A DNA stretch of 63,575 nucleotides, counting the filler, from Vannella sp. (taxonomy: Eukaryota), in the NCBI GenBank assembly GCA_023345925.1. It is 5 parts of 5 records of this genome, joined end to end, with 100 filler letters (N's around TTAATTAATTAA, not from the genome) between each part and the next. Parts side by side here need not be neighbours in the genome. Positions count along the whole stretch, not along the records: positions 19,327 to 38,101 come from JAJQQN010000363.1; 4 more parts are not named here. One strand, given 5' to 3'. Position numbers and translations under genes: made by a program. Shown here one piece after another: positions 19,227 to 58,312 of this stretch. Every line of letters starts with the position of its first letter. Position 1 is the first letter of the stretch. Below the pieces are notes generated by a model, which saw only the letters and a list, made by a program, of their open reading frames with translations, searched no databases and was not told the DNA's origin.

Positions 19227-19326
19227 NNNNNNNNNNNNNNNNNNNNNNNNNNNNNNNNNNNNNNNNNNNNTTAATTAATTAANNNNNNNNNNNNNNNNNN
19301 NNNNNNNNNNNNNNNNNNNNNNNNNN
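19227..19326. other. Artificial gap/contig linker
   Basis: 44 N + TTAATTAATTAA (stops in all six frames) + 44 N; identical at four places. Confidence 0.97.
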
Positions 19327-19460: not shown

Positions 19461-21236
19461 TTATTCCTTTTTGAGATGTTTGGGTGCCAGACCTTGGGGG
19501 AGTTGGGAGAGAAGAAGAGAGTGGAGAGATTCTGTAGTGTTGTCCCACCAAAAGGGGATGACGGCGAGGTGGACGTGATGTTGAAGACAAAGAGACTTTT
19601 TCTCTTCGTCTCGTTTTTGATAGAGATCGATGGACCCGAAGCTTGGAATCTCCCGATAATGATGTTCTCCTTGATATTCAAAGGCTATTGAATGGTCTGG
19701 AATGAAAACATCGAACTCCACGTGGATTCCAGAAACACGCGAGAGATGCTCATGAATGTAATCTTCGATGACTTCACAATGCGGGAAGAGATTGCGGATC
19801 TGGAGGTAGAGGAATCTTTGAGAGGCCCGTTTGTCTCTCCCATTAAGATGGAATTGGTCCCAAGCTTCCTCAGGGAAGGCTCTTTCAAGGACTTTGTGAA
19901 GTGTCCCGAACTTCTGAATGAGCCCTCCTCCACCCAGATGGGCGATTTGAGAAAGAGATACTCTCTCCCAGTCCTTTGGAGCTTTGATTTGGAGCCTATC
20001 TTCCACACGGCGAAGAAACTCAACAAGGTTGGCGCGCTCATCCCAAAAGTTGCGAGGAACTACATTGCGGTCCTCAAAGATGTTCCATTTCATCTCCGGA
20101 TAGAGGAATTTAAGCATCTCAGAGAAGGAGGAATATCTAGAGAGAATACTCACTCCCCCTGCCAAGTGAATATCGCGACTAGTCACCCCTTTCCAGCCTT
20201 CTGGAACATTCGGGATTCCTCTCTGTTCCACAAATCGATCCAAAAACCGTCTTTGCAAACGAGGATCATCCCAAAAGCGCTTGGGGAACGGCTTAAACTC
20301 AAAGACATCCCAACTGAGTTCGGGGTAAATACTGCCAAGTGCTTCGAAGAGCGTCGGATAGTAGGTGAATAACGATCGCCCTCCAGCCAGTAAGATCTTC
20401 TTCTTTCCTATTTTCGCTAACTGCAAGGGAGAGTCAAGTTCCAGTTGTTGGACGATTCGGTCCATCAGAAGGCGGTGATTCTTCTGGTCCTTCCAAAACT
20501 CCTCGCGCGGTAGAACTGAGCGATCTAAAGGGTTCCAATCGTGTTCAGGATAGATGGTTTTGAGGGCTTGATGAAAGGTCTTGTAGCATCGGAGGATGGG
20601 AGCGCCTCCTCTCTCCATGACTTCTCTTTTCTTCACCGCATTCCACTGACTTAGGCATTGGAAGCCCCATTCTTGTGCCAACTGATCAAAGAACTCTCTT
20701 TGATGGGTGAGATCCTTCCAATAGTCCTTTGGCTTCCGGCTAGGAGGACTTTGTTGACTCTGTGATGTTGTTTTGTCGTACCAGAGAGCCCAAGGATGCT
20801 CAGGATAGTGCGTTTCTACAATGCTACGTACTGAAGAGTACGTTAAGAGCAAGCTACTGGCGTTGTGATGGACCAGCGTCTGATAAGAGACTCTCGTCCA
20901 GTCTTTGGGGTGGAGAATGCCAAGCTCCCTCGCTAGATCGCTTAAGAAGCGCAACCTATTGGATTCACTGATCCAAAAGTGACGAGGAAGCCGTTCAAAC
21001 TTGCACAGGCTCCACTGGCGCTCTGGGTAAACCGCCGAGAGAAGCTCTACGACATCCTTGTACCGCCCTGGCCCAAGCAGACGCGCTGCCCCTGCCTTCT
21101 TCACATGCTCCCTCCTTATCCAATACATCCAATCCTCCTTCTCACCCGTTGGATCGACCAGAGAGCGCAGAGCCTCCACCATCGCCCTCTCATCCACCAC
21201 CGGAGAGTTGGCGCGTCTCACCGCTCTCCCAAACAT
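19461..21236 (-). CDS. Tandem ~75-aa helical-repeat protein with C-terminal Vsr/DUF559/RAP-like (PD-(D/E)xK fold) nuclease domain; possible mitochondrial targeting
   Basis: Single 591-aa ORF. Five full repeats plus one partial, consensus (F/Y)W...R.F.D.....L.....W..V........GG..LL..Y......L...YPE..W. C-terminus EFDVFIPDHSIAFEYQGEHHY...RDEEKKSLC...LAVIPFWWD. Arg-rich N-terminus MFGRAVRRANS. Confidence 0.85.
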   Translation of the reverse strand: MFGRAVRRANSPVVDERAMVEALRSLVDPTGEKEDWMYWIRREHVKKAGAARLLGPGRYKDVVELLSAVYPERQWSLCKFERLPRHFWISESNRLRFLSDLARELGILHPKDWTRVSYQTLVHHNASSLLLTYSSVRSIVETHYPEHPWALWYDKTTSQSQQSPPSRKPKDYWKDLTHQREFFDQLAQEWGFQCLSQWNAVKKREVMERGGAPILRCYKTFHQALKTIYPEHDWNPLDRSVLPREEFWKDQKNHRLLMDRIVQQLELDSPLQLAKIGKKKILLAGGRSLFTYYPTLFEALGSIYPELSWDVFEFKPFPKRFWDDPRLQRRFLDRFVEQRGIPNVPEGWKGVTSRDIHLAGGVSILSRYSSFSEMLKFLYPEMKWNIFEDRNVVPRNFWDERANLVEFLRRVEDRLQIKAPKDWERVSLSQIAHLGGGGLIQKFGTLHKVLERAFPEEAWDQFHLNGRDKRASQRFLYLQIRNLFPHCEVIEDYIHEHLSRVSGIHVEFDVFIPDHSIAFEYQGEHHYREIPSFGSIDLYQKRDEEKKSLCLQHHVHLAVIPFWWDNTTESLHSLLLSQLPQGLAPKHLKKE

Positions 21237-21242
21237 GTGAAA

Positions 21243-21924
21243 ATGACTCCTTCAGCCTCTGTGAACGAGCCAGCTCTGGGAGGGAGTCATAGTGACAAGT
21301 GTTTGTTGGGATGGCGTTGTTTGGATGGTTAGACGCCGCAGCTCGTACCAGACGAGTGTGAAGAAGAAGGTGCTTACTGTTGTTGCTGAGGTGGTGATTC
21401 TCTTCGTTGTTTGGAAGCTCTTTGGGGGAGGTATGTGGAAGGGGGGCGGCTTTTGGTGGTGTTCTCGGCCTGGCTGTCTTTTTTGGGTTCAGTTGTGCAA
21501 CAAGGTCCTATCTTTGTGTCTGTTGACTCTACTATGGTTGATCAGTACCACCAGGGATCAGTGGAACTGCTGAAATGGAGTCTTCCTTCCTGTGTGACTG
21601 AACACTCTTCCTGACGAAGCGGCAATGAGCAACAGATGTTCGTACCTTTCACTTGAGAGAAAACAAAGTCCATCGCCGTTCGGATTGATGCGGAGATCCT
21701 GTCCTCGAGCGGCAATAGACGCTTTTCTCAGAGTGGGCGAAGTTCGTTCTCCGCCGCTTCCCCGAGTGGAAGTGGGGGTCTCTGCAAGTAACGGAGACGC
21801 CATCCTCGACGAAAGAAACCCATCCTTCGTCAATCACAGTTCTTCAAGATTCTTTGAGGAGCGATTCCACACGGGAACGCTGTGGGAGCTCCTGCTCTCT
21901 CTTTTCTATTTGGGCTCTTTTTGA
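21243..21924 (+). CDS. Putative small spliced membrane protein (exon structure uncertain)
   Basis: ATG at 21243; plausible GT-AG introns flank an exon encoding KKKVLTVVAEVVILFVVWKLFGG (type II TM-like). Downstream exons not resolved. Confidence 0.35.
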
Positions 21925-43351: not shown

Positions 43352-46300
43352 TCAAAGAGTGGCTTTTTCGCCCAACTTTTGAAGTTTGCGGTTTTCCTTT
43401 TGGATTCTTACTCTGACCCAGATTTCCACGGCAATCCCACTTAGAATCACTAAGATGATGGCCCCAGCAACGAATCCCACAGAGATCCAAGAGAGAGTCT
43501 TTTCGACGGCCGGATTGCAAGGATCGCCTCCTTTCAAGTTACCAGTTAAAAGGAGTGCAAAGTTGGTGAGATGGTCTGTTTGGCCACACAGGAGGCTTTT
43601 GGAGTCTTTGTTTGTGAGACAGGGATCCTCACACTTCCACCGGGACTGGCGTTCGTCGTAGAATCCCAAGCAGATGTCCTTTCTCGCCAGTTCTGGGGGT
43701 CTTGGTAAGCAAATGGACAGTGGATCGTCCAACTTTGTCACAAGATTACCATTCCTATCGAGTAATGTAATGTCAAGAATCAGGCCTCCGAGTTGGCGGG
43801 AAAAGTCCGCCGGAATTCCGGACACTACAACGATATTGAGTGTAGACAGGGACCTCTGGCTGAGTCCGGACGGGATTGAAAGCGTTCCGATCAAAACACC
43901 AGAAGGAGGTATCATTTCTACATCAATACGATCCCGTGTCCGATTGCTCAAGTCAATGGAAAGCCTGAAGAACTCGCAGGTGGTGCAATTGGCTCTCAGT
44001 TGTTCCTGAAGCGTGTTCAGTGCCGCAGTAGAACTTGGCGCAAGAGTTGCGGAAGGGAACTTCAAAATAGTACTCTCAGCAGACCTTGAAGGACTCAGAA
44101 GGATTGAACGGAAAGGGCTTGTTCCACCGGCCCCAGGAGACACAGAACTGCTGACTGGATTATTGAGACTCGCCGTTCTGATGGGAGTGGGATTAATCGA
44201 AAGGAATGGACTTTGGGCCCCGCTGGAAGTTGGGGTGGAAGTATCAGTGAAGAAGACAGTGGCACTCTTAATAGAGCTTGCGAAAGAATTCTGACTAATG
44301 CTAGCAAGCAAAGTCTGTGTGGGGCTCTGAGAGGAAGGACTTTCCGATGTGGTACCTTCAGTAGTGAGGGTACTGGAAGCACTGCGAGTCGAAGAAAAGG
44401 CAGCGCTGGCACTGGAGCTAAGATTAGGTGAAGGGCTTATCAGATCGCTGGCACTGCCAGAATCGCTGGCACTTAATGTTGGAGAAGCGCTCAAACTTGC
44501 ACTTTGAGAAGGATTTGCCGATTTGATTTCGGACTGGGAAGGAGTGATGGAAGAGCTGTCACTCTCAGATGAAGTGGCGCTGTTGCTTGCAATGGGACTT
44601 AAGCTGGTATTCTGGGAAGGGCTTTCAGATGCAGTATCAGGCGCTGAGGAGGAATCAGAGCTACTGGTGCTAGCAGTCAGAGTTGAACTGCTGCTGGAGC
44701 TAGAGCTGGGAGTGATGAAAGGTCTTCTCGTGCCACTGGTACTGGGAGAATTGGTGGCGCTCGGACTCGAGGACAAGCTCATGCTGGCACTTTGAGAAGG
44801 GCTCTCTGAGGCAGTATAAGGCACTGAAGAAGAACCAGAGCTACTGGTGCTGGCAGTTGCAGTCAAACTGCTGCTGGGGCTGATGCTAGGAGTGATGGAA
44901 GGACTTGTCGTTTCACTGGTACTGCGAGAATTAGTGACGCTAGGACTCGAGGACAAGCTCATGCTGGTACTTTGAGAAGGGCTTTCCGAGGTAGAGTCAG
45001 ACGATGAAGAAGAACCAGAAGTACTGATGCTAGCACTTGAAGTAAAACTGCTGCTGGAGCTAGATGTGGGAGTGATGGAAGGACTTGTCGTTCCACTAGT
45101 ACTGGGAGAATCGGTGGCGCTGGGACTCGAGGACAAGCTCATGCTGGCACTTTGAGAAGGGCTTTCTGAGGCAGTGTCAGATGATGTAGAAGAACCAGAA
45201 GTACTGATGCTAGCAGTCGCAGTAAAACTACTGCTGGAGCTGAAGCTGGGAGTGATGGACGGACTTGTCGTTCCACTGGTACTCGGAGAATTGGTGATAC
45301 TTGGACTCGAGGACGGAGTAAAACTGTTACTTTGAGAAGGGCTTTCTGAGGCAGTGTCAGACGGTGTGAGAGAGGCAGAGGCACTGATGCTGACTGATGA
45401 GGTTGTACTGCTGCTGGGACTAGGAACGAAGCTTTCGGAGTTGCTGATGGAGACTGAAGAGCTGACGGTTGGGGTCATTGAAGACGTTTCGGTGGCGCTA
45501 AAGCTGCCAGAAGAGCTTGGACTTGACGTTGAAGTGGAACTCCAAGTGACGGAAGGACTTTCACTTTCACTTGAGGAAGAGCTTCCGCTACCAGAAGCAG
45601 AAGAACTGGGAGAGGGCGAAGACGTCGGTGTGACTGAGATGCCGTTCGTACAGTTGGAAGCAGTTGGCCCATTGCAAGTGATACAACTTGGATGGCATTC
45701 TTGGCAAGTCCGGCTTCTCTTCAATACGCGGGAATAAGTCCCATCGGGGCAAGTCAACCGGCATTCTCCCACAGAGGATGAAAAGTTCAAATCTTTTGGC
45801 AGGAGAAACCGAGGATAGGGGCAAGAGAGGCATTCAGTAACGCCTACTCGATCGCAAGATTGACAGTATGGGCTGCAATCGAAACATTCTGAGACATTTA
45901 AGAATGTCTTTGCCGGACATGGACTGATGCATTCTCTTTGATACCAGTATTCTCCGGCCCCACATGCACTGGTGCAGAATCCGCTTTGATTAAAGAATGG
46001 AGAAGGACCATTGGGATCGCATTCAGCTGCGAGAGACTTGTGAACAGCGAACCATCCGTCTGTTGTCGTGAAGTTATCAGGATCGATGGATACTAGAGCG
46101 TTCTTCGTCCAAAGAGGATAATCAGTAGATCCAGCAATCACAAAGGTACCGTTCTTGATGTAGCTTACGGCTCGGGCGCCAGCACCCCGTGTTACACGAG
46201 TCGTGAGTAGTCTCTGAGAGAAGTCAGATGGATAGACGACATAAAGAGATCCTCCAAGATACTCTCCTCCAAGATACTCCAAGTTGATAGGAGCTCCATA

Positions 46301-48451
46301 CGCGGAAAACAGAGCCAAAGTCACTTTTCCAAAAACATCAACGGCAATATTCCCGCTAGTAGGACTGATCGTATTAGTATTGCCATTAGGAAGACGTCCA
46401 CAAAGTTGTGTTCCAAGAATATAAGCTCCAGAATCTGGCTCATATCGGGCAAAGAAGGTCTTCGACTCTCCGCCAGAATTGAAGAAATTGGAGAAAACGT
46501 CTTTGATAACGATTGGCACCAATCGAGTGATATTGAATGGATCATAACGTAGAACGTGGTTACCTCCGCCTACATGGTACATAATGTAAAGCAGATTGTC
46601 GCCTCCAAATGTGCAGCGAACTCCGCGGGCGAAGCCCATGTTGCTTTCAGGAGTGTTTAACCATCGCGGATCACTGCTATTACTAGACCAGTCATACCCT
46701 TGGTACTTCAGAGTCCCGTTGAAATAGGTTCCTTTGTAAGACGCTAGATCTACATTCGCTGGTGAACTAAGAAGATTTGGTTTGGTGCTGAAAGTGCGGT
46801 GTCCCACCGTAACTACAGTTTCAGTAATCTCATCGATGCACACGTCCTTGTTATACTGACTAGCGCCAGAAAAATTGCCGATTTGAGTCCCGCTTTCGTC
46901 AAAAACGAAGACAGAAGCGGAGGTAATTCTGGGATCGTCATAACCATTTGGTGGGGGGGGCTGGGGTGCGTTAAGAATGGTGACGAATCCAGAAGGCGAC
47001 GCATCAACTCGTTGCACGTGATTGGTAAAGTTCTTTCTCCAAACGACTGAGAGTGTGGTGGTAGCTGCATTCAGTTTCAAAAGACCACGGGGACCACATG
47101 CTACGTATATGTTGTCTCCCCCATCAACAGAGATGTCAAGAGTTATCGAAGCAACTACTGAGACGGACAAGATGACGGTTCCTTCTTGATTAAGGCGGAG
47201 AATGAGGCCAGTGTCATTGACTGTTGCCCCATTCAGGTACACTGGTGAACCAAAGGCGGGCATGTTGACTGCCATCACAATCTCATTGGTCGATAGAACA
47301 GCCACACCGCGAATGTCGTCCGTGGTATTAGAAGAACCGAGATAAGTTGAGGTGATGAGAAGGTCTTTCTTCACCGTGGCTTCATAAGGAGAACTCTTTC
47401 CTATCACTCCTTCGTTATCAGTTCCTTCCACAACGATAGAATAAGATCCCACGGCAGGCGGGCTCCAAAAGGCGGTGTAGGGGGTGGTGGTAGATTGAGA
47501 GATCAGAGAATTATTCGCTTTGAAGCTGACGGAAACGACAGACCCATCTGCGTCCTTACAAGTGGCAGGAAGATTGACAAACGCTCCCACTGCATACACC
47601 GAAGGAGCTTCTCGAGGGAAGGAGATGGTTGGAATGGGTACAAGATTATTCTGTCCAATCAAGCGAACTTCATCAACGTAGATCTTCTGAGACCCACCAA
47701 CATCGGGACTTAGAAAAGTGATGTAATACACTTGGCTGATGGGGACGGTGAAGTCAGCCGCAATGACGAATTGGAAGTTGTCAGTGGGTTTCACAAGTAT
47801 TTCAGTCAAGTTGACGCCTGGCGTACTCGGGGAGTCTCTCAGCTCTGCGCGTAGCAACACAGGAGAACCACCAGCTCTTGTTTCGCGAAACTCTAAACGA
47901 TAGAGAGTGTTTGCAGTCAAGTAAATGGGAGGAGACGCTGCAAAGTTGATTCCAGGATCCAAGTTCAAGCCGTACAAGGTGGCATTCCCAGAATTGGAGG
48001 CGTTGGCGTACCCAGGAAGACTGGGAGGATTGGTATTCCACTGATTAAACGTCCAATCATCAACGTCTTCCATGTCCCAATGAACGTACTCGCTCAGGTT
48101 GCCGTTTGCGAAGGTGACTTCCAGTTGTCGTGTGGGTAAGGTTGTAGTAATACCATCGTTATCAGTAATGACCGCAGTGAGGTTGTAGAGTCCAGGTAGC
48201 ATCTTCGACCAGGTGGTGTTGTAAGGGGCAACCGTATCATTGAAGAACCTCTTCCCATCAATGTCGAATGTGACTCTCGTAACCGTTCCATCAGGGTCAG
48301 AAGCATTAACCACCATGGTGATGGATTGCGCTCCATCTTCTCTCAAAGTTGTGAACGCAGCAAGAGGAGAAAGCCAGTTCCCCACGGGAGGTATAAACAA
48401 ACACTCAACGGTGCAGGACATCAAGAGCAGGATCAACACCCGAGAAAGCAT
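43352..48451 (-). CDS. Intronless single-pass surface receptor/adhesin: signal peptide, two bacterial Ig-like domains, beta-sandwich, beta-propeller, furin-like Cys repeats, S/T stalk, GPS-like motif, TM
   Basis: 1699-aa ORF. ASDPDGTVTRVTFDIDG and KDADGSVVSVSFKAN (Big-type); CxxC repeats (CFDCSPYCQSC, CQECHPSCITC); CLGFYDERQSRWKCEDPCL...CGQTDHLTNFALLL; TM WISVGFVAGAIILVILSGIAV; short basic tail. Confidence 0.88.
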   Translation of the reverse strand: MLSRVLILLLMSCTVECLFIPPVGNWLSPLAAFTTLREDGAQSITMVVNASDPDGTVTRVTFDIDGKRFFNDTVAPYNTTWSKMLPGLYNLTAVITDNDGITTTLPTRQLEVTFANGNLSEYVHWDMEDVDDWTFNQWNTNPPSLPGYANASNSGNATLYGLNLDPGINFAASPPIYLTANTLYRLEFRETRAGGSPVLLRAELRDSPSTPGVNLTEILVKPTDNFQFVIAADFTVPISQVYYITFLSPDVGGSQKIYVDEVRLIGQNNLVPIPTISFPREAPSVYAVGAFVNLPATCKDADGSVVSVSFKANNSLISQSTTTPYTAFWSPPAVGSYSIVVEGTDNEGVIGKSSPYEATVKKDLLITSTYLGSSNTTDDIRGVAVLSTNEIVMAVNMPAFGSPVYLNGATVNDTGLILRLNQEGTVILSVSVVASITLDISVDGGDNIYVACGPRGLLKLNAATTTLSVVWRKNFTNHVQRVDASPSGFVTILNAPQPPPPNGYDDPRITSASVFVFDESGTQIGNFSGASQYNKDVCIDEITETVVTVGHRTFSTKPNLLSSPANVDLASYKGTYFNGTLKYQGYDWSSNSSDPRWLNTPESNMGFARGVRCTFGGDNLLYIMYHVGGGNHVLRYDPFNITRLVPIVIKDVFSNFFNSGGESKTFFARYEPDSGAYILGTQLCGRLPNGNTNTISPTSGNIAVDVFGKVTLALFSAYGAPINLEYLGGEYLGGSLYVVYPSDFSQRLLTTRVTRGAGARAVSYIKNGTFVIAGSTDYPLWTKNALVSIDPDNFTTTDGWFAVHKSLAAECDPNGPSPFFNQSGFCTSACGAGEYWYQRECISPCPAKTFLNVSECFDCSPYCQSCDRVGVTECLSCPYPRFLLPKDLNFSSSVGECRLTCPDGTYSRVLKRSRTCQECHPSCITCNGPTASNCTNGISVTPTSSPSPSSSASGSGSSSSSESESPSVTWSSTSTSSPSSSGSFSATETSSMTPTVSSSVSISNSESFVPSPSSSTTSSVSISASASLTPSDTASESPSQSNSFTPSSSPSITNSPSTSGTTSPSITPSFSSSSSFTATASISTSGSSTSSDTASESPSQSASMSLSSSPSATDSPSTSGTTSPSITPTSSSSSSFTSSASISTSGSSSSSDSTSESPSQSTSMSLSSSPSVTNSRSTSETTSPSITPSISPSSSLTATASTSSSGSSSVPYTASESPSQSASMSLSSSPSATNSPSTSGTRRPFITPSSSSSSSSTLTASTSSSDSSSAPDTASESPSQNTSLSPIASNSATSSESDSSSITPSQSEIKSANPSQSASLSASPTLSASDSGSASDLISPSPNLSSSASAAFSSTRSASSTLTTEGTTSESPSSQSPTQTLLASISQNSFASSIKSATVFFTDTSTPTSSGAQSPFLSINPTPIRTASLNNPVSSSVSPGAGGTSPFRSILLSPSRSAESTILKFPSATLAPSSTAALNTLQEQLRANCTTCEFFRLSIDLSNRTRDRIDVEMIPPSGVLIGTLSIPSGLSQRSLSTLNIVVVSGIPADFSRQLGGLILDITLLDRNGNLVTKLDDPLSICLPRPPELARKDICLGFYDERQSRWKCEDPCLTNKDSKSLLCGQTDHLTNFALLLTGNLKGGDPCNPAVEKTLSWISVGFVAGAIILVILSGIAVEIWVRVRIQKENRKLQKLGEKATL
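44611..45360. repeat. 180-bp (60-aa) tandem repeat in the mucin-like stalk, about 4 copies
   Basis: The anchor g(a/g)gaagggct(t/c)tc..ag recurs in blocks starting 44611, 44791, 44971, 45151 and 45331, an exact 180-bp period. Confidence 0.9.
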
Positions 48452-48890
48452 CGTGTAGCAAAGGGAGAACCAAAAATAACCGCCTTTCTATTGATGGAAA
48501 ACTTCGAATGATCGAACAACACAATCCCTTTTTAAGAAAATCTATTTTAAGAGCACCAAATATGGGAGTTACTCTCGACTCTTTCTGGATTTCCCCCTGT
48601 CAACCTCTGAATAAAATGGCCTTGCATTATTTACACGCAATAGTCTATGAAGACTTATTCGAAAAAAAGTGGGAAACAGTTTTTGGCCAAAAGAGGAACT
48701 TTCTCCCAAGCGGCCGAGCGTCTGGTCACGCCCTTGCAAGTTGCAGAGCTAGTTGAGGGAAGAAAAGAATTGGAATGTCGTGGAAACCTCTCGACTTCTT
48801 GAATGCACTTTTGAACCAAGTGCGAAACGGGGACCAGAAAAGCGTGGAAATCATGTCCGGAGGAAGTCAATTTTGTTCGGGTGCGCTTGA

Positions 48891-51800
48891 ATGGTGAGAG
48901 AAGTGGTTTGCCTGCTGTTGATAATGCTGTGTGAGCAGTCTTTGAGCGCTCTCACTGCGAATTGGGTGTCCCCACCAGCCTTAGTGAGTTTGAGAGAGGA
49001 TGGAGGAGCCCAGAGCGTTCTCATGGTGATTAATGCGTCGGATCCTGCCTCGATGCTACTTACTGTCGAGTTCCGCATCAATGCAACAAGCTTCTACACT
49101 GACACGTCATCTCCATACGAAGCCACGTGGTCTAAAATGCTTCCTGGCGTGTACACCATCTCTGCCCTCATTTCGAACGATCAAGGCTCCAACTTGACGC
49201 TCGGGGATCGAATCGTAATGGTTACATTCTCTGATGGTACCTTAACTGAGTACCTTCACTACGATATGAAGAACCTCGCGGACTGGACACTCAACAAGTG
49301 GACAAGCTCTTCCCTCGGCTTTCAGAACGCATCCGATGGAGGAACAGCTTCTTTGTATTGTTTCGGAGTGAATGGATACGCAGCTTCTCCGCCCATTGCC
49401 CTGTTTCCAAGCGTCCTGTATCGTCTGGAGTTCCGTATGAACGCAAACCGGACTGTTGTTGGAGGAATGACAATCAAAGTAGAGTTGCGACAGACCCTTA
49501 CCTCCTCGGGGACCACTTTGGGTACGTTCTCTGTCTCAGGAGAGGCGTTTGAATTCAACGTAACTTCATTCAACGTCAACGCTGCAAGCATCTTCTTCCT
49601 GACTTTCATCTCTTCTCATTCGAATGTCTTTTTGGATGAAGTGCGTCTCATTGGACCCGCCAATCTGGCCCCCATAACGAAAATCGCGTTCTCGCCAGAT
49701 TCCCCAAGAACCTACGCAAAGGGAGCTTTGGTGGATATTCCTGCAACATGCACAGATTCTGATGGTTTTGTGAACTCTGTCTCATTCACCATCAATGGAC
49801 TGCTCCTTGCAACTACTAATGTAGCTCCTTATACCGTACGCTGGATTCCAACCACGTTAGGAGTGTTCAATATTGTTGCTGAAGGAAAGGATAACGAAGG
49901 AATTTCAACCGTTTCTGCTCCTTACATAATCAATGTCGTGGAGGATTACGTAATCAGTTCCAGTTATCTTGGTTCTTTCAACAGTTCTGATGCTATCAGA
50001 GGAGTTGCCATCCTATCAACTGGCGAGATTGTCATGGCCGCGAACATGCCCGCATTTGGAGGCTCAGAATACCTTTTTGGTACTTCAAGCTCTGACAAGG
50101 GCCTCGTCATACGCTTGAATTCGAATGGAACCATGATTTCGTCTGTCTCTGTGGTAGCAGCGACTGTTGTTGATATTTCAGTCGATGAAAGCAACTCTAT
50201 TTACGTCGCTCTTGGTCGGAATGGTCTGTACAAACTCAGGGTCTCTCTAACAGGAAAGCTAGAGCTCATTTGGAAGAGAGAATTCTCGAGTCAAGTTCAT
50301 CGTGTGGACGTGACGCCTTCTGGTTATGTTGCGATTCTTACGACAAACTCTTCACAATATGACGAACCAGAATCCACTTCCTCCACAATCTACGTTCTTG
50401 ATTCTACTGGCAATCAAATTGGTGAATTTATCCGGTCGGACAGCGTTACCAAAGATGTTTGCATTGACGAGATCTCCTTGACGGTTGTGACTCTGGGATA
50501 CTCAATGAGGAAGACCTATCCAAACTACTCTTCGACTGATCTTTCTGATATCGAGATTCCTTTCTACATGGGAACATCATTCGATGGAACAGTGAAGTAT
50601 TTGGGCTATGATTGGTCCTCAGATAGAAACGACCCTCGATGGCTGAACCAATTTGAGAATAACATGGGTGCAACAAGAGGAGCCCGCTGCACCTTTGGTG
50701 AGGACGGATTGCTCTACATGTTGTTCTCTGTGGCAGGAGGAAACACTCCTTTGCGCTACGATCCTTTCAATATCTCAAAATCAACAAGAACCGTTGGAGG
50801 GGACAAATACTCCGCCTTTTACAGCGTTGGAAGAGAAATCAAACTCATGTTCACAAGATCTCATCCTGCCAACGGCTCGTACATTCTCGGCCAGCAGCTT
50901 TGCGGACGACTCCCAAATAACAGAGGCTCCTCAATCTCTCCGCTCGTTGGCAACCTGGCCGTCGACGTTTTCGGCAAAGTACATTTGGCCGTCACAGCGG
51001 CCACTGGCACCCCCATCAACAAGGAATATCTAGGTGGCGGGTTCCTGGGAGGTTCTCTGTTCGTGGTGTATTCATCTGACTTCTCTCAACGTCTCCTGAC
51101 AACTCGCCTAACTGAGGGAGGGGACTCTCGAGCAATTGCAGTGGCCCGAAATGGATCTTTCGTTGTTGCTGGATCAACCGACAAGGTCCTTTGGACCAAG
51201 AATGCTGCTTTCGCTGGGGATCCTGATAACCTCTCTCATGATGGCTGGTTCGCTGTTCACGAGCGCCTCTCAGCGGGTTGTGACCCAAACGCGGCTCCCT
51301 TCTTGAACCGTTCTGGCGTCTGTGTGAAGTCTTGTGCTGTTGGAGAAGTTACCTTGAATAATGAGTGTCTGAGATTCTGTCCTCCAGGAACTTGCCAGAT
51401 TGGATTGATTTGTTACTTTTGCTCCAAATCACCTTCAGTCACTTTGAGTGTCTCTCCCACTCCGTCTCTCACTTCCTCGGTATCTGCTTCAGATTCTTTC
51501 TCCTCCAGCTTCTCTTCTAGTGAGAGTTGGAGTGGTTCTTCCAGTGTCAGCCCCACCTTCTCTCTCACCCACTCAGTCTCTGGCTCAAAATCGTGTTCCA
51601 CAAGTCCTTCTCCTAGTGACAGTCCTACCACCTCTTCCAGTGTCAGTTCCACTCCTTCGGTTACCTCCTCAGTATCTGCCGCAAATTCATCCTCCTCCAG
51701 CTTCTCTTCGAGTGACAGTTTGAGTGGCTCATTAAGTCAGTCTCCAAGCGCCCTCCCTTCTACTATGCCTTCTGACAGTGAAAGCTCGTCCGGTTCTGTT

Positions 51801-53084
51801 AGGTATTCAGAAACAGCCCGTCTCTCTTCTTCTGGCCTCACAGTTTCGGAAATCTCTTCTGCCAGCTCGTCCTCTTCTCAATCGCTCAGCCATTCACTTT
51901 CCAAGACAGGACCTTCATCGATTGGCCCTGTCAGAGACTCTGAATCAGCCACCAGTTCAGTAAGCCTCTCCGAAACTTCAAGTTTTCGCTTTTCGGGTAA
52001 AGAATCTGGGATCAGCGAGTCACTGGCAGAATCAGCATTAATGAGCCTTTCTCCTGGCCCCTCAGAAAGACCAAACGAGGTTCAATCTTCATCGGAGTCT
52101 ATTTCGGCGAGAAGCATCTTCACGAATAAGTCTCCTTCAGTGTCCCTCGAAGGAAGATCCGTTTCCGAAACAGAGAGCCAGTCGAGTTCAATGGAGATTG
52201 CAAGTTCTACCATAACTCTGTCGGTTTCAGAGCCGCCATCTCAGTCCATCACTCCCTCTTTCAGCAACATTTCCGCCATCAAGTCACTCTCCAGTGCTCC
52301 TCTTCCCGAAAGCAATCAAATTGAAAGTCCACTGGAATCAGCAAGATCATCAGAGTCACCTTCTCCACTAGTCCTCCAGATCTCAAGTTTGAGCACAACA
52401 CCAGAGACAGCTTCACCCATTCCTCTTAGTTCTAGTCCAAGTGTATCCACTTTAGTCATCAAGACTACTGATTCAATACCACAGAGTGACCAGATACTGT
52501 CAACTTCGTCTGCAATCATCAGAGAGATCGAAATATCTCTTCCTAGCGGCGAGAACGTTTTGGTTCTTGTGAATAACTTAAGCCCCGAATCGAGTCTCCA
52601 AGTGCAACCAGGAGACCCACTTGCAGAGTCCTTAGGAGGAAATATTCTGGTGTCATCCGTTGTCAGCATTGTGCTGACAAGTGACAGTGGCCAGTCCATC
52701 CAACCAGTGGATCCAATCACTATTTGCTTCCAGAGCGGGAAAAATCAGACCAATACCAACAAGGGACTATGCTTGGGATCCTTCAATGAAGCTAAGGCTA
52801 AGTGGGTGTGTGACGACTACTGTTTGAAAGTAAGAAACGATACTTTGTGTGGAACTGTGGACCATTTGACCAACTTTGCCATCTTACTGGGGGGCAAAGG
52901 CAGTAACAATGGAAATCCTTGTGAAAGTGTGTCACAAAGCTATGTCCTATCCTATCTTTCATTAGCTTTCGTAGCGGCAGCCATACTTTTCGTGATTATT
53001 GGAATCTTATTCGCCGAAGCTCGGGTCAGGAGTATGCACCGAAAGGACGGAATTGTCAGATTCACCGTTGAGATTACCGATTAA
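48891..53084 (+). CDS. Divergently transcribed paralog of the 43352-48451 receptor (1397 aa, intronless)
   Basis: Collinear similarity (LREDG.AQS..MV.NASDP, TWSKMLPG.Y, GYDWSS...DPRWLN..E.NMG, QLCGRLPN, SDFSQRLLTTR); CLGSFNEAKAKWVCDDYCL...CGTVDHLTNFAILL; TM YLSLAFVAAAILFVIIGILFA. Confidence 0.88.
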   Translation: MVREVVCLLLIMLCEQSLSALTANWVSPPALVSLREDGGAQSVLMVINASDPASMLLTVEFRINATSFYTDTSSPYEATWSKMLPGVYTISALISNDQGSNLTLGDRIVMVTFSDGTLTEYLHYDMKNLADWTLNKWTSSSLGFQNASDGGTASLYCFGVNGYAASPPIALFPSVLYRLEFRMNANRTVVGGMTIKVELRQTLTSSGTTLGTFSVSGEAFEFNVTSFNVNAASIFFLTFISSHSNVFLDEVRLIGPANLAPITKIAFSPDSPRTYAKGALVDIPATCTDSDGFVNSVSFTINGLLLATTNVAPYTVRWIPTTLGVFNIVAEGKDNEGISTVSAPYIINVVEDYVISSSYLGSFNSSDAIRGVAILSTGEIVMAANMPAFGGSEYLFGTSSSDKGLVIRLNSNGTMISSVSVVAATVVDISVDESNSIYVALGRNGLYKLRVSLTGKLELIWKREFSSQVHRVDVTPSGYVAILTTNSSQYDEPESTSSTIYVLDSTGNQIGEFIRSDSVTKDVCIDEISLTVVTLGYSMRKTYPNYSSTDLSDIEIPFYMGTSFDGTVKYLGYDWSSDRNDPRWLNQFENNMGATRGARCTFGEDGLLYMLFSVAGGNTPLRYDPFNISKSTRTVGGDKYSAFYSVGREIKLMFTRSHPANGSYILGQQLCGRLPNNRGSSISPLVGNLAVDVFGKVHLAVTAATGTPINKEYLGGGFLGGSLFVVYSSDFSQRLLTTRLTEGGDSRAIAVARNGSFVVAGSTDKVLWTKNAAFAGDPDNLSHDGWFAVHERLSAGCDPNAAPFLNRSGVCVKSCAVGEVTLNNECLRFCPPGTCQIGLICYFCSKSPSVTLSVSPTPSLTSSVSASDSFSSSFSSSESWSGSSSVSPTFSLTHSVSGSKSCSTSPSPSDSPTTSSSVSSTPSVTSSVSAANSSSSSFSSSDSLSGSLSQSPSALPSTMPSDSESSSGSVRYSETARLSSSGLTVSEISSASSSSSQSLSHSLSKTGPSSIGPVRDSESATSSVSLSETSSFRFSGKESGISESLAESALMSLSPGPSERPNEVQSSSESISARSIFTNKSPSVSLEGRSVSETESQSSSMEIASSTITLSVSEPPSQSITPSFSNISAIKSLSSAPLPESNQIESPLESARSSESPSPLVLQISSLSTTPETASPIPLSSSPSVSTLVIKTTDSIPQSDQILSTSSAIIREIEISLPSGENVLVLVNNLSPESSLQVQPGDPLAESLGGNILVSSVVSIVLTSDSGQSIQPVDPITICFQSGKNQTNTNKGLCLGSFNEAKAKWVCDDYCLKVRNDTLCGTVDHLTNFAILLGGKGSNNGNPCESVSQSYVLSYLSLAFVAAAILFVIIGILFAEARVRSMHRKDGIVRFTVEITD

Positions 53085-53275: not shown

Positions 53276-53375
53276 NNNNNNNNNNNNNNNNNNNNNNNNN
53301 NNNNNNNNNNNNNNNNNNNTTAATTAATTAANNNNNNNNNNNNNNNNNNNNNNNNNNNNNNNNNNNNNNNNNNNN
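53276..53375. other. Artificial gap/contig linker
   Basis: N44-TTAATTAATTAA-N44. Confidence 0.97.
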
Positions 53376-58212: not shown

Positions 58213-58312
58213 NNNNNNNNNNNNNNNNNNNNNNNNNNNNNNNNNNNNNNNNNNNNTTAATTAATTAANNNNNNNNNNNNNNNNNNNNNNNNNNNNNNNN
58301 NNNNNNNNNNNN
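58213..58312. other. Artificial gap/contig linker
   Basis: N44-TTAATTAATTAA-N44. Confidence 0.97.

Follow-up and report, generated by a model that had tools for sequence, protein, structure and literature searches.

A Vannella protein joining six helical repeats to a Vsr/EDxHD-like nuclease domain: a candidate mitochondrial DNA nickase or endonuclease

The open reading frame (ORF) at positions 19461..21236 (minus strand) of a 63,575-nucleotide stretch of joined genome parts from Vannella sp. (GCA_023345925.1; the whole stretch is termed the window) encodes a protein of 591 amino acids (aa), the query protein, comprised of a leader, six helical repeats, and a Vsr/EDxHD-like nuclease domain, with no internal stops from 21236 to 19461. 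The explanation that we favor, tentatively and with somewhat less than even confidence, is a domesticated nickase or endonuclease that is targeted to mitochondria and binds DNA at specific sites. The nuclear gene would encode a protein imported into mitochondria, where six DUF4046-related modules would hold on to a long stretch of mitochondrial DNA (mtDNA), the presumed substrate, with nicking or cutting next to this site by the predicted Vsr/EDxHD-type nuclease; the break may then be sealed by a ligase acting in cis in some members of the family and in trans for the query protein. Such an enzyme could serve in mtDNA maintenance by starting repair, recombination, or replication. Its ancestor would have been a repeat-endonuclease, rare among prokaryotes or phages, that gained a presequence and expanded into paralogues with different targets.

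Repeat array and nuclease domain

The AlphaFold2 model of the query protein, built on a 115-sequence alignment with a mean predicted local distance difference test score (pLDDT) of 92.2 and a predicted template modeling score of 0.72, contains helical repeats plus an α/β domain. A 591-aa ORF with five full repeats and one partial, capped by a nuclease-type domain, had been proposed from the DNA alone (the original prediction); a hidden Markov model (HMM) of the repeat agrees with this count, and the structural model with the cap. The chain starts with a short basic leader (aa 1–14, 21195..21236; three Arg and no Asp or Glu), possibly a mitochondrial presequence, which is followed by a partial and degenerate first repeat (aa 31–77 in the HMM, 21006..21146, with helices from aa 16 in the model). 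The HMM places the full repeats at aa 80–151 (20784..20999), 166–235 (20532..20741), 243–311 (20304..20510), 314–386 (20079..20297), and 391–461 (19854..20066). A low-confidence Ser/Gln/Pro linker (aa 152–165, 20742..20783) separates the first two of these and has a counterpart at the equivalent place in both orthologues described below. The nuclease domain occupies aa 467–578 (19503..19838), where the C-terminal motifs quoted originally are all present. Every one of these features lies on the minus strand.

The array is marked by Y/F-P-E-x-x-W anchors at aa 70, 144, 229, 304, 379, and 454, at intervals of 74, 85, 75, 75, and 75. The HMM (73 positions) was started from five repeats and refined in rounds against 150 proteins, the query and its 149 top matches; it scores the five full repeats of the query at 59–79 bits and the partial one at 23.5 bits, and across the 150 proteins it identifies 1,080 repeats, 3–25 per protein, most often spaced by 73–78 aa. 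Near-invariant columns are few (W9, N14, W34, G46-G47, Y54, P67, and W71, with the hydrophobic helix cores). The near-constant scaffold described in the original prediction is thus confined to about a dozen columns; elsewhere it does not hold, the five full repeats being only 18–36% identical to one another. About 40 of the 73 columns are highly variable. A net basic charge is carried by 70% of 735 full repeats, and any pair of repeats more than 70% identical occurs in only 8 of the 150 homologues. Modeled alone, full repeat 4 folds as a unit of five short helices (pLDDT 89.3), and the unit of ∼75 aa is, as claimed, longer than those of PPR, OPR, or TALE proteins.

The repeat had been thought to match no named family, but this view has to be abandoned. 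Comparison with DUF4046 (PF13255) by hhalign gave a probability of 95% and an E of 2.7e-8 over 73 columns, with a single DUF4046 sequence as template, and PF13255 is present in 11% and 55% of the members of neighboring groups in the Atlas. A profile of 68 repeats, run over 401 genomes of the phylum of a Blautia genome, found one gene, which passes the DUF4046 cut-off (26 versus 22.8 bits). The Pfam gathering score for DUF4046 was reached neither by the query protein nor by any of the 68 repeats scanned, the Pfam scan of the query protein returned no match to any family, and PPR/HPR/OPR-type families were absent from the same 68 repeats. We know of no function for DUF4046, and the literature searched (by title or abstract start, with subscription journals outside it) held no paper on DUF4046 or on the present family. 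The bacterial DUF4046 gene (the L255 1147-1782 / 310-1107 pair) lies directly behind another ORF, which may be SIR2-like.

Structural comparison of the single repeat with VIA gave a best Z of 4.2, with 17 of 50 titles being TetR/AcrR and four rows LOTUS-type; these weak neighbors are mostly nucleic-acid-binding domains of helix-turn-helix (HTH) type. There were no matches at Z 5 or above. PPR, TPR, and TALE are absent from the 50 matches listed, and Foldseek with the single repeat gave no viral match at E ≤ 0.001. Two identities suspected by eye were not supported: HNH_repeat (PF18780), an Atlas lead at 0.82, reached an hhalign probability of only 2.6–3% against a 10-sequence alignment, and TetR_N reached 1.8%, both profile alignments being short and scoring barely above 40 column shuffles. 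The repeat as modeled is thus compact and DUF4046-like, and any likeness to HTH domains is weak.

For the C-terminal domain (aa ∼467–584), VIA matched the predicted model to I-Bth0305I (3r3p; Z 9.7, root mean squared deviation 3.5, 98 aligned residues), DNA-bound Vsr (Z 9.5, 2.9, 105 aligned), a Toxoplasma mitoribosome chain (9g6k_Li; Z 9.2), the endonuclease-like ngo0050 (8.9), and FASTKD4 (9gek; 8.8). With a predicted model as query these scores are tied, and they uphold the Vsr/DUF559/RAP-type fold of the original prediction. Kinship to RAP itself survives only as a shared fold: RAP (PF08373) was not matched in the query protein (E ≤ 1), in 35 proteins (E ≤ 0.01), or in 9 homologues (E ≤ 1), whereas PHROG 559 (E 2.6e-11) and PHROG 9084 (E 8.1e-9), annotated as HNH, homing, or intron-encoded nucleases, were matched in sequence, as were 15 phage records, several annotated as such nucleases. 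Viral matches in Foldseek were homing, restriction-like, DUF559, and Vsr endonucleases. The whole model had no PDB match at E ≤ 0.001, its best, non-significant rows being Toxoplasma and Tetrahymena mitoribosome chains, and sequence searches of the PDB gave no real match. At the level of sequence, the nuclease domain is closer to phage and bacterial homing-type endonucleases than to RAP.

The domain is present in 148 of the 150 homologues, and D509, E520, G523, H526, D543, and K546 are all kept in 143 of those 148. The EDxHD motif is defined in PMC3239194, where D196, H213, and D222 of I-Bth0305I are paired with D51, H69, and D97 of Vsr, respectively. By motif order, D509 (19710..19712; predicted metal ligand), H526 (19659..19661; predicted general base), and D543 (19599..19610 as far as K546) would correspond to these three pairs and thus to the Asp, His, and Asp of EDxHD. 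The first Glu of the motif falls in a column where the query has Gln (Q473, 19818..19820), as do 142 of 143 aligned family rows. Glu occupies this column in 41 of 42 aligned prokaryote-genome rows, the repeat-less bacterial relatives, and the range offsets of the VIA alignment put Q473 at Vsr residue 25, a Glu. Gln is found, however, in 11 of 26 aligned viral rows, and is therefore no proof of lost activity. Two nuclease domains, or repeats after the nuclease, occur in P0091, P0133, P0146, P0011, and P0139, layouts suggestive of tandem genes that fused or of gene calls that read through.

Family members, leaders, and relatives

A phmmer search over 1.84 billion representatives found 6,868 clusters at E ≤ 0.001 (985 at E ≤ 1e-30), the best 150 of which were examined; word-index homologue searches found just 1, 2, and 2 proteins. 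Neighbors in the Atlas are mostly eukaryotic, with Tubulinea the commonest and some giant-virus members, and the organism names attached to 5 of 30 proteins looked up were four times Cavostelium apophysatum, these being paralogues from one transcriptome, and once Heterolobosea sp. BB2, all of them amoebae. Two orthologues, P0158 (52% identity) and P0005 (45%), match the query repeat by repeat; for P0005 the identities are 43–57% on the diagonal and 20–38% off it. This correspondence indicates a stable cellular gene with a conserved array. The collinear pairs that could enter a per-column comparison for specificity residues numbered just seven.

Leaders of at least 15 aa precede the array in 79 of the 150 proteins. 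Their mean content of Asp/Glu in aa 2–21 is 0.59, compared with 2.26 for prokaryotic N termini (n = 163) and 2.48 for interior windows, and 51 of the 79 are presequence-like (two or more Arg but no more than one Asp/Glu in aa 2–21) as against 22 of the 163 prokaryotic N termini. A presequence-cleavage-like motif is found in 15 of 79 leaders versus a background of 2.5%. Both orthologues carry presequence-like leaders, and from these N-terminal sequences members of the family are likely to be targeted to mitochondria. The mitochondrial location proposed originally is thus likely at the level of the family; the query's own short N terminus fails the same criterion (below).

A search with the nuclease motif provided 240 loci, 80 each from metagenomes, viruses, and prokaryote genomes. 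Repeats are present in 20 of the 80 metagenome loci, one of the 80 viral, and none of the 80 best prokaryote-genome loci. Nine of the metagenome loci (L087–L089, L091–L093, L095, L096, and L110) were judged prokaryote-like by their compact, intron-free layout; clear bacterial-type neighbors are seen only for L091, where the gene is flanked by UvrC and pyridoxal phosphate enzyme genes, and L093 (3–3956), where it follows genes for a Schlafen group 3 helicase and an HNH protein in a defence-island-like row, and L088 and L095 are fragments. On the viral contig, L001, the gene is directly followed by one for a DnaB-like helicase (E 1e-68). Of six prokaryote-like members checked, five are leaderless and begin with the first repeat, and L091 has a different N-terminal region. 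Elsewhere in prokaryotic genomes the repeats were found in one of 401 (the DUF4046 gene), 0 of 251, and 0 of 5, a match in one of 301 (E 7e-4) being judged chance; scans for PF13255 itself over 4 and over 301 genomes gave no match. Among 80 + 80 viral loci L001 was the only contig with repeats, and a degenerate repeat pattern matched none. Such repeat-nuclease genes are rare in prokaryotes. In a quick tree, a branch with SH-aLRT 93 sets off the 59 repeat-less domains, with the prokaryote-like repeat members adjoining and one long eukaryotic branch intruding. Protists may have acquired the gene by transfer from prokaryotes or from phage. Because prokaryote-like relatives still exist, the domestication would be traceable.

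An ATP-dependent DNA ligase tail is present in 8 of the 150 proteins, five full-length and three shortened. That of P0092 retains an intact KxDG and is recognized by PF01068 (35.5 bits against a cut-off of 26.2) and PHROG 114 (E 6.3e-22), and KxDG is also kept in the intron-containing loci L101 and L105 (34 bits for L105). Cutting and joining in one chain points to DNA as the substrate, at least for the ligase-bearing part of the family. P0066, P0128, and L094 end in a common Cys-rich tail resembling a PARP-type zinc finger, a likeness that Pfam did not confirm.

Alternative explanations

Several observations weigh against a site-specific mtDNA nickase or endonuclease. Within the query protein itself, the leader is ∼19 aa shorter than in both orthologues and free of acidic residues for just 14 residues, such that aa 2–21 contain four Arg but three Asp/Glu and fall outside the presequence criterion; a ligase is also lacking, and across the family KxDG is lost in four of the five full-length ligase tails. 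The Gln at Q473 may lower or change activity, and the 150 homologues, as top scorers among 6,868, are biased toward intact nuclease domains. The HTH likeness of the repeat, at Z 4.2 and a TetR_N probability of 1.8%, is weak. Many paralogues per genome are not easily squared with active DNases when the genome to be cut is small, and the tree of 139 nuclease domains is quick and unrooted. Finally, RAP proteins tie with the DNA endonucleases in fold score, and FASTKD5 cleaves mitochondrial pre-mRNA (PMC12242768).

These last points lead to the main competitor, a strong though less likely alternative, in which the protein is a mitochondrial RNA-processing factor convergent on OPR-RAP/FASTK, with repeats that read RNA sequence or structure and a Vsr-like domain that cleaves or protects the transcript. 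Besides the common fold and the FASTKD5 precedent, the mitoribosome chains among the best Foldseek rows, the presequence-like leaders, the LOTUS domains among the weak single-repeat neighbors, and an expansion into many paralogues, of the kind seen among the RNA-binding repeat families of organelles, are all consistent with it. Moreover, RAP proteins were reported as not detected in Amoebozoa (PMC8190603), so the family could fill that role. On the other hand, no RAP, PPR, or OPR match was found with Pfam, PPR, TPR, and TALE are missing from the 50 listed single-repeat matches, the nearest sequence relatives are DNA endonucleases, and the fused ligases are of DNA type; on our analysis the ligase fusions and the prokaryotic relatives would not favor RNA as the substrate. 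An improbable alternative is a mostly non-cutting, DNA-bound site marker whose paralogues on mtDNA steer transcription, for example by specifying sites of co-transcriptional insertion editing. The Glu-to-Gln change and the degenerate ligases would suit a protein of this kind, as would the one named member from the amoeba BB2, for which PMC5421314 gives 475 insertional editing sites with site recognition unknown; editing in Physarum, which depends on some 18 bp of template and on a factor bound to the DNA (PMC5192504), would fit as well. Against this, nearly all domains retain the other six residues of the nuclease, the literature searched yielded no editing data for Cavostelium or Arcellinida, and one BB2 sequence does not make a correlation.

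The least probable explanation is a still-selfish homing-type endonuclease spreading in nuclear genomes. An EDxHD-like nuclease, a free-standing phage copy, clusters numbering in the thousands, and an unbroken ORF among neighbor genes that carry introns would all be expected of such an element; long stop-free frames are, however, found elsewhere in the window, and L094, L101, and L105 contain introns. The two collinear orthologues (45% and 52% identical to the query) and the presequence-like leaders also argue against it, as does the failure to find convincing terminal repeats or, in low-depth contigs of four runs, an empty-site joint across the gene. Of 13 variants scored, 8 are synonymous, a count that leaves out eight variants at 20108–20265 (two synonymous, six not), where loose ends at 20157 and 20302 suggest a contig from another organism, and 10 further unscored differences.

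A bolder proposal, which we consider quite improbable, is that amoeboid protists domesticated a prokaryotic repeat-endonuclease as a protein-programmed mtDNA system, in which ∼75-aa modules would each read a few base pairs and arrays would address long sites, some members cutting and re-ligating in a single chain, while attenuated paralogues would be the DNA-bound factors that determine where insertions are made during transcription in BB2 and Physarum. On this view the modules would form a new DNA-reading scaffold, re-orderable and naturally delivered to mitochondria. If the modules of the nickase or endonuclease favored here read DNA one site each, they would provide a natural modular nuclease scaffold for organelles, and members of the family are candidates for the site-specifying factors of insertional RNA editing. 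Furthermore, thousands of clusters lacking a Pfam entry appear to represent a major unrecognized part of protist mitochondrial genetics, and DUF4046 gains a testable role.

Genomic setting and known systems

The ORF is free-standing and nuclear, placed between LSM and Pol A genes, and the genes around it (LSM, RNase PH, Pol A, and VPS13) are eukaryotic or eukaryote-type. The window contains four N gaps (19227–19326, 38102–38201, 53276–53375, and 58213–58312), each with a 12-base spacer (TTAATTAATTAA in the gap inspected); as the first lies only 135 bases beyond the stop of the gene, the left and right neighborhoods may not truly adjoin. Over the 1.77-kb frame the gene is intronless, as described originally; its 5′ end is a prediction, and there may be an additional exon upstream. 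A GT..AG intron-like stretch lies upstream of the start codon (21276–21348, minus strand), and splicing through it would bring an in-frame stop to five codons before the ATG, as for an intron of the 5′ untranslated region or an upstream exon. The sequencing runs listed for the gene include no RNA run, and the best-matching DNA runs are biofilm metagenomes.

No second member of the family was found in the window. An imperfect inverted repeat of 16 nucleotides (19469–19484 / 21228–21243) at both ends of the ORF is one of nine such pairs and probably chance, and 331 bases upstream of the gene (21434–21766) are skipped in one contig of run X2, as a possible strain deletion or artefact. Farther away, divergent stop-free frames at 43355–48487 (minus strand, 1,711 aa) and 48891–53081 (plus strand, 1,397 aa) contain Big_7 bacterial Ig-like domains above the Pfam cut-off and are possibly surface proteins, horizontally acquired, in a eukaryote. 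A further stop-free frame of 1,911 aa (32240–37972, minus strand) has many TPRs and a ZZ zinc finger at its C terminus.

The literature searched already contains the combination of repeats and nuclease, but describes neither this type of repeat, nor its amoebal expansion, nor fusions to a ligase. DUF4046 shares profile-level homology with the repeat over its whole length, but Pfam shows no nuclease in the bacterial protein found (211 aa). The TALE-like build suggested in the original prediction is not borne out. TALE and TALEN proteins, like the query, join tandem modules and a nuclease in one chain, and TALE repeats are 33–35 aa long and nearly identical with two variable residues; those of the query are ∼75 aa, diverge as described above with about 40 variable columns, and keep their order in orthologues.

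The RAP helical-repeat proteins (FASTK/FASTKD, OPR-RAP, and HPR-RAP) resemble the family in their repeat array, C-terminal Vsr-like domain, and paralogue expansion, and probably in their presequence. PPR, HPR, and OPR repeats are helix pairs of 35–40 aa, about half as long as the five-helix unit modeled here, and the RAP proteins carry the PF08373 signature that the query lacks. FASTKD4, which PMC11879112 presents as Vsr-like but apparently inactive, with Asn at the His position, lacks the His that the query family keeps. Prokaryotic relatives and DNA-ligase fusions further set the family apart, and the likeness would be one of convergent design, not membership, that is, a second, independent arrival at the design of presequence, repeats, and Vsr-like nuclease known from FASTK and OPR-RAP.

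The closest parallel is with the EDxHD homing endonucleases, such as I-Bth0305I, and with Vsr, which provide the best structural match and share with the query a C-terminal Vsr-like domain with Asp, His, and Asp equivalents. Enzymes of the I-Bth0305I type also have repeated small modules ahead of the nuclease, theirs being NUMOD motifs and those of the query ∼75-aa DUF4046-like units. The query differs in having Gln for the first Glu of the motif, and in being a nuclear eukaryotic gene, outside any intron or intein, with conserved orthologues and with leaders that are presequence-like in the family.

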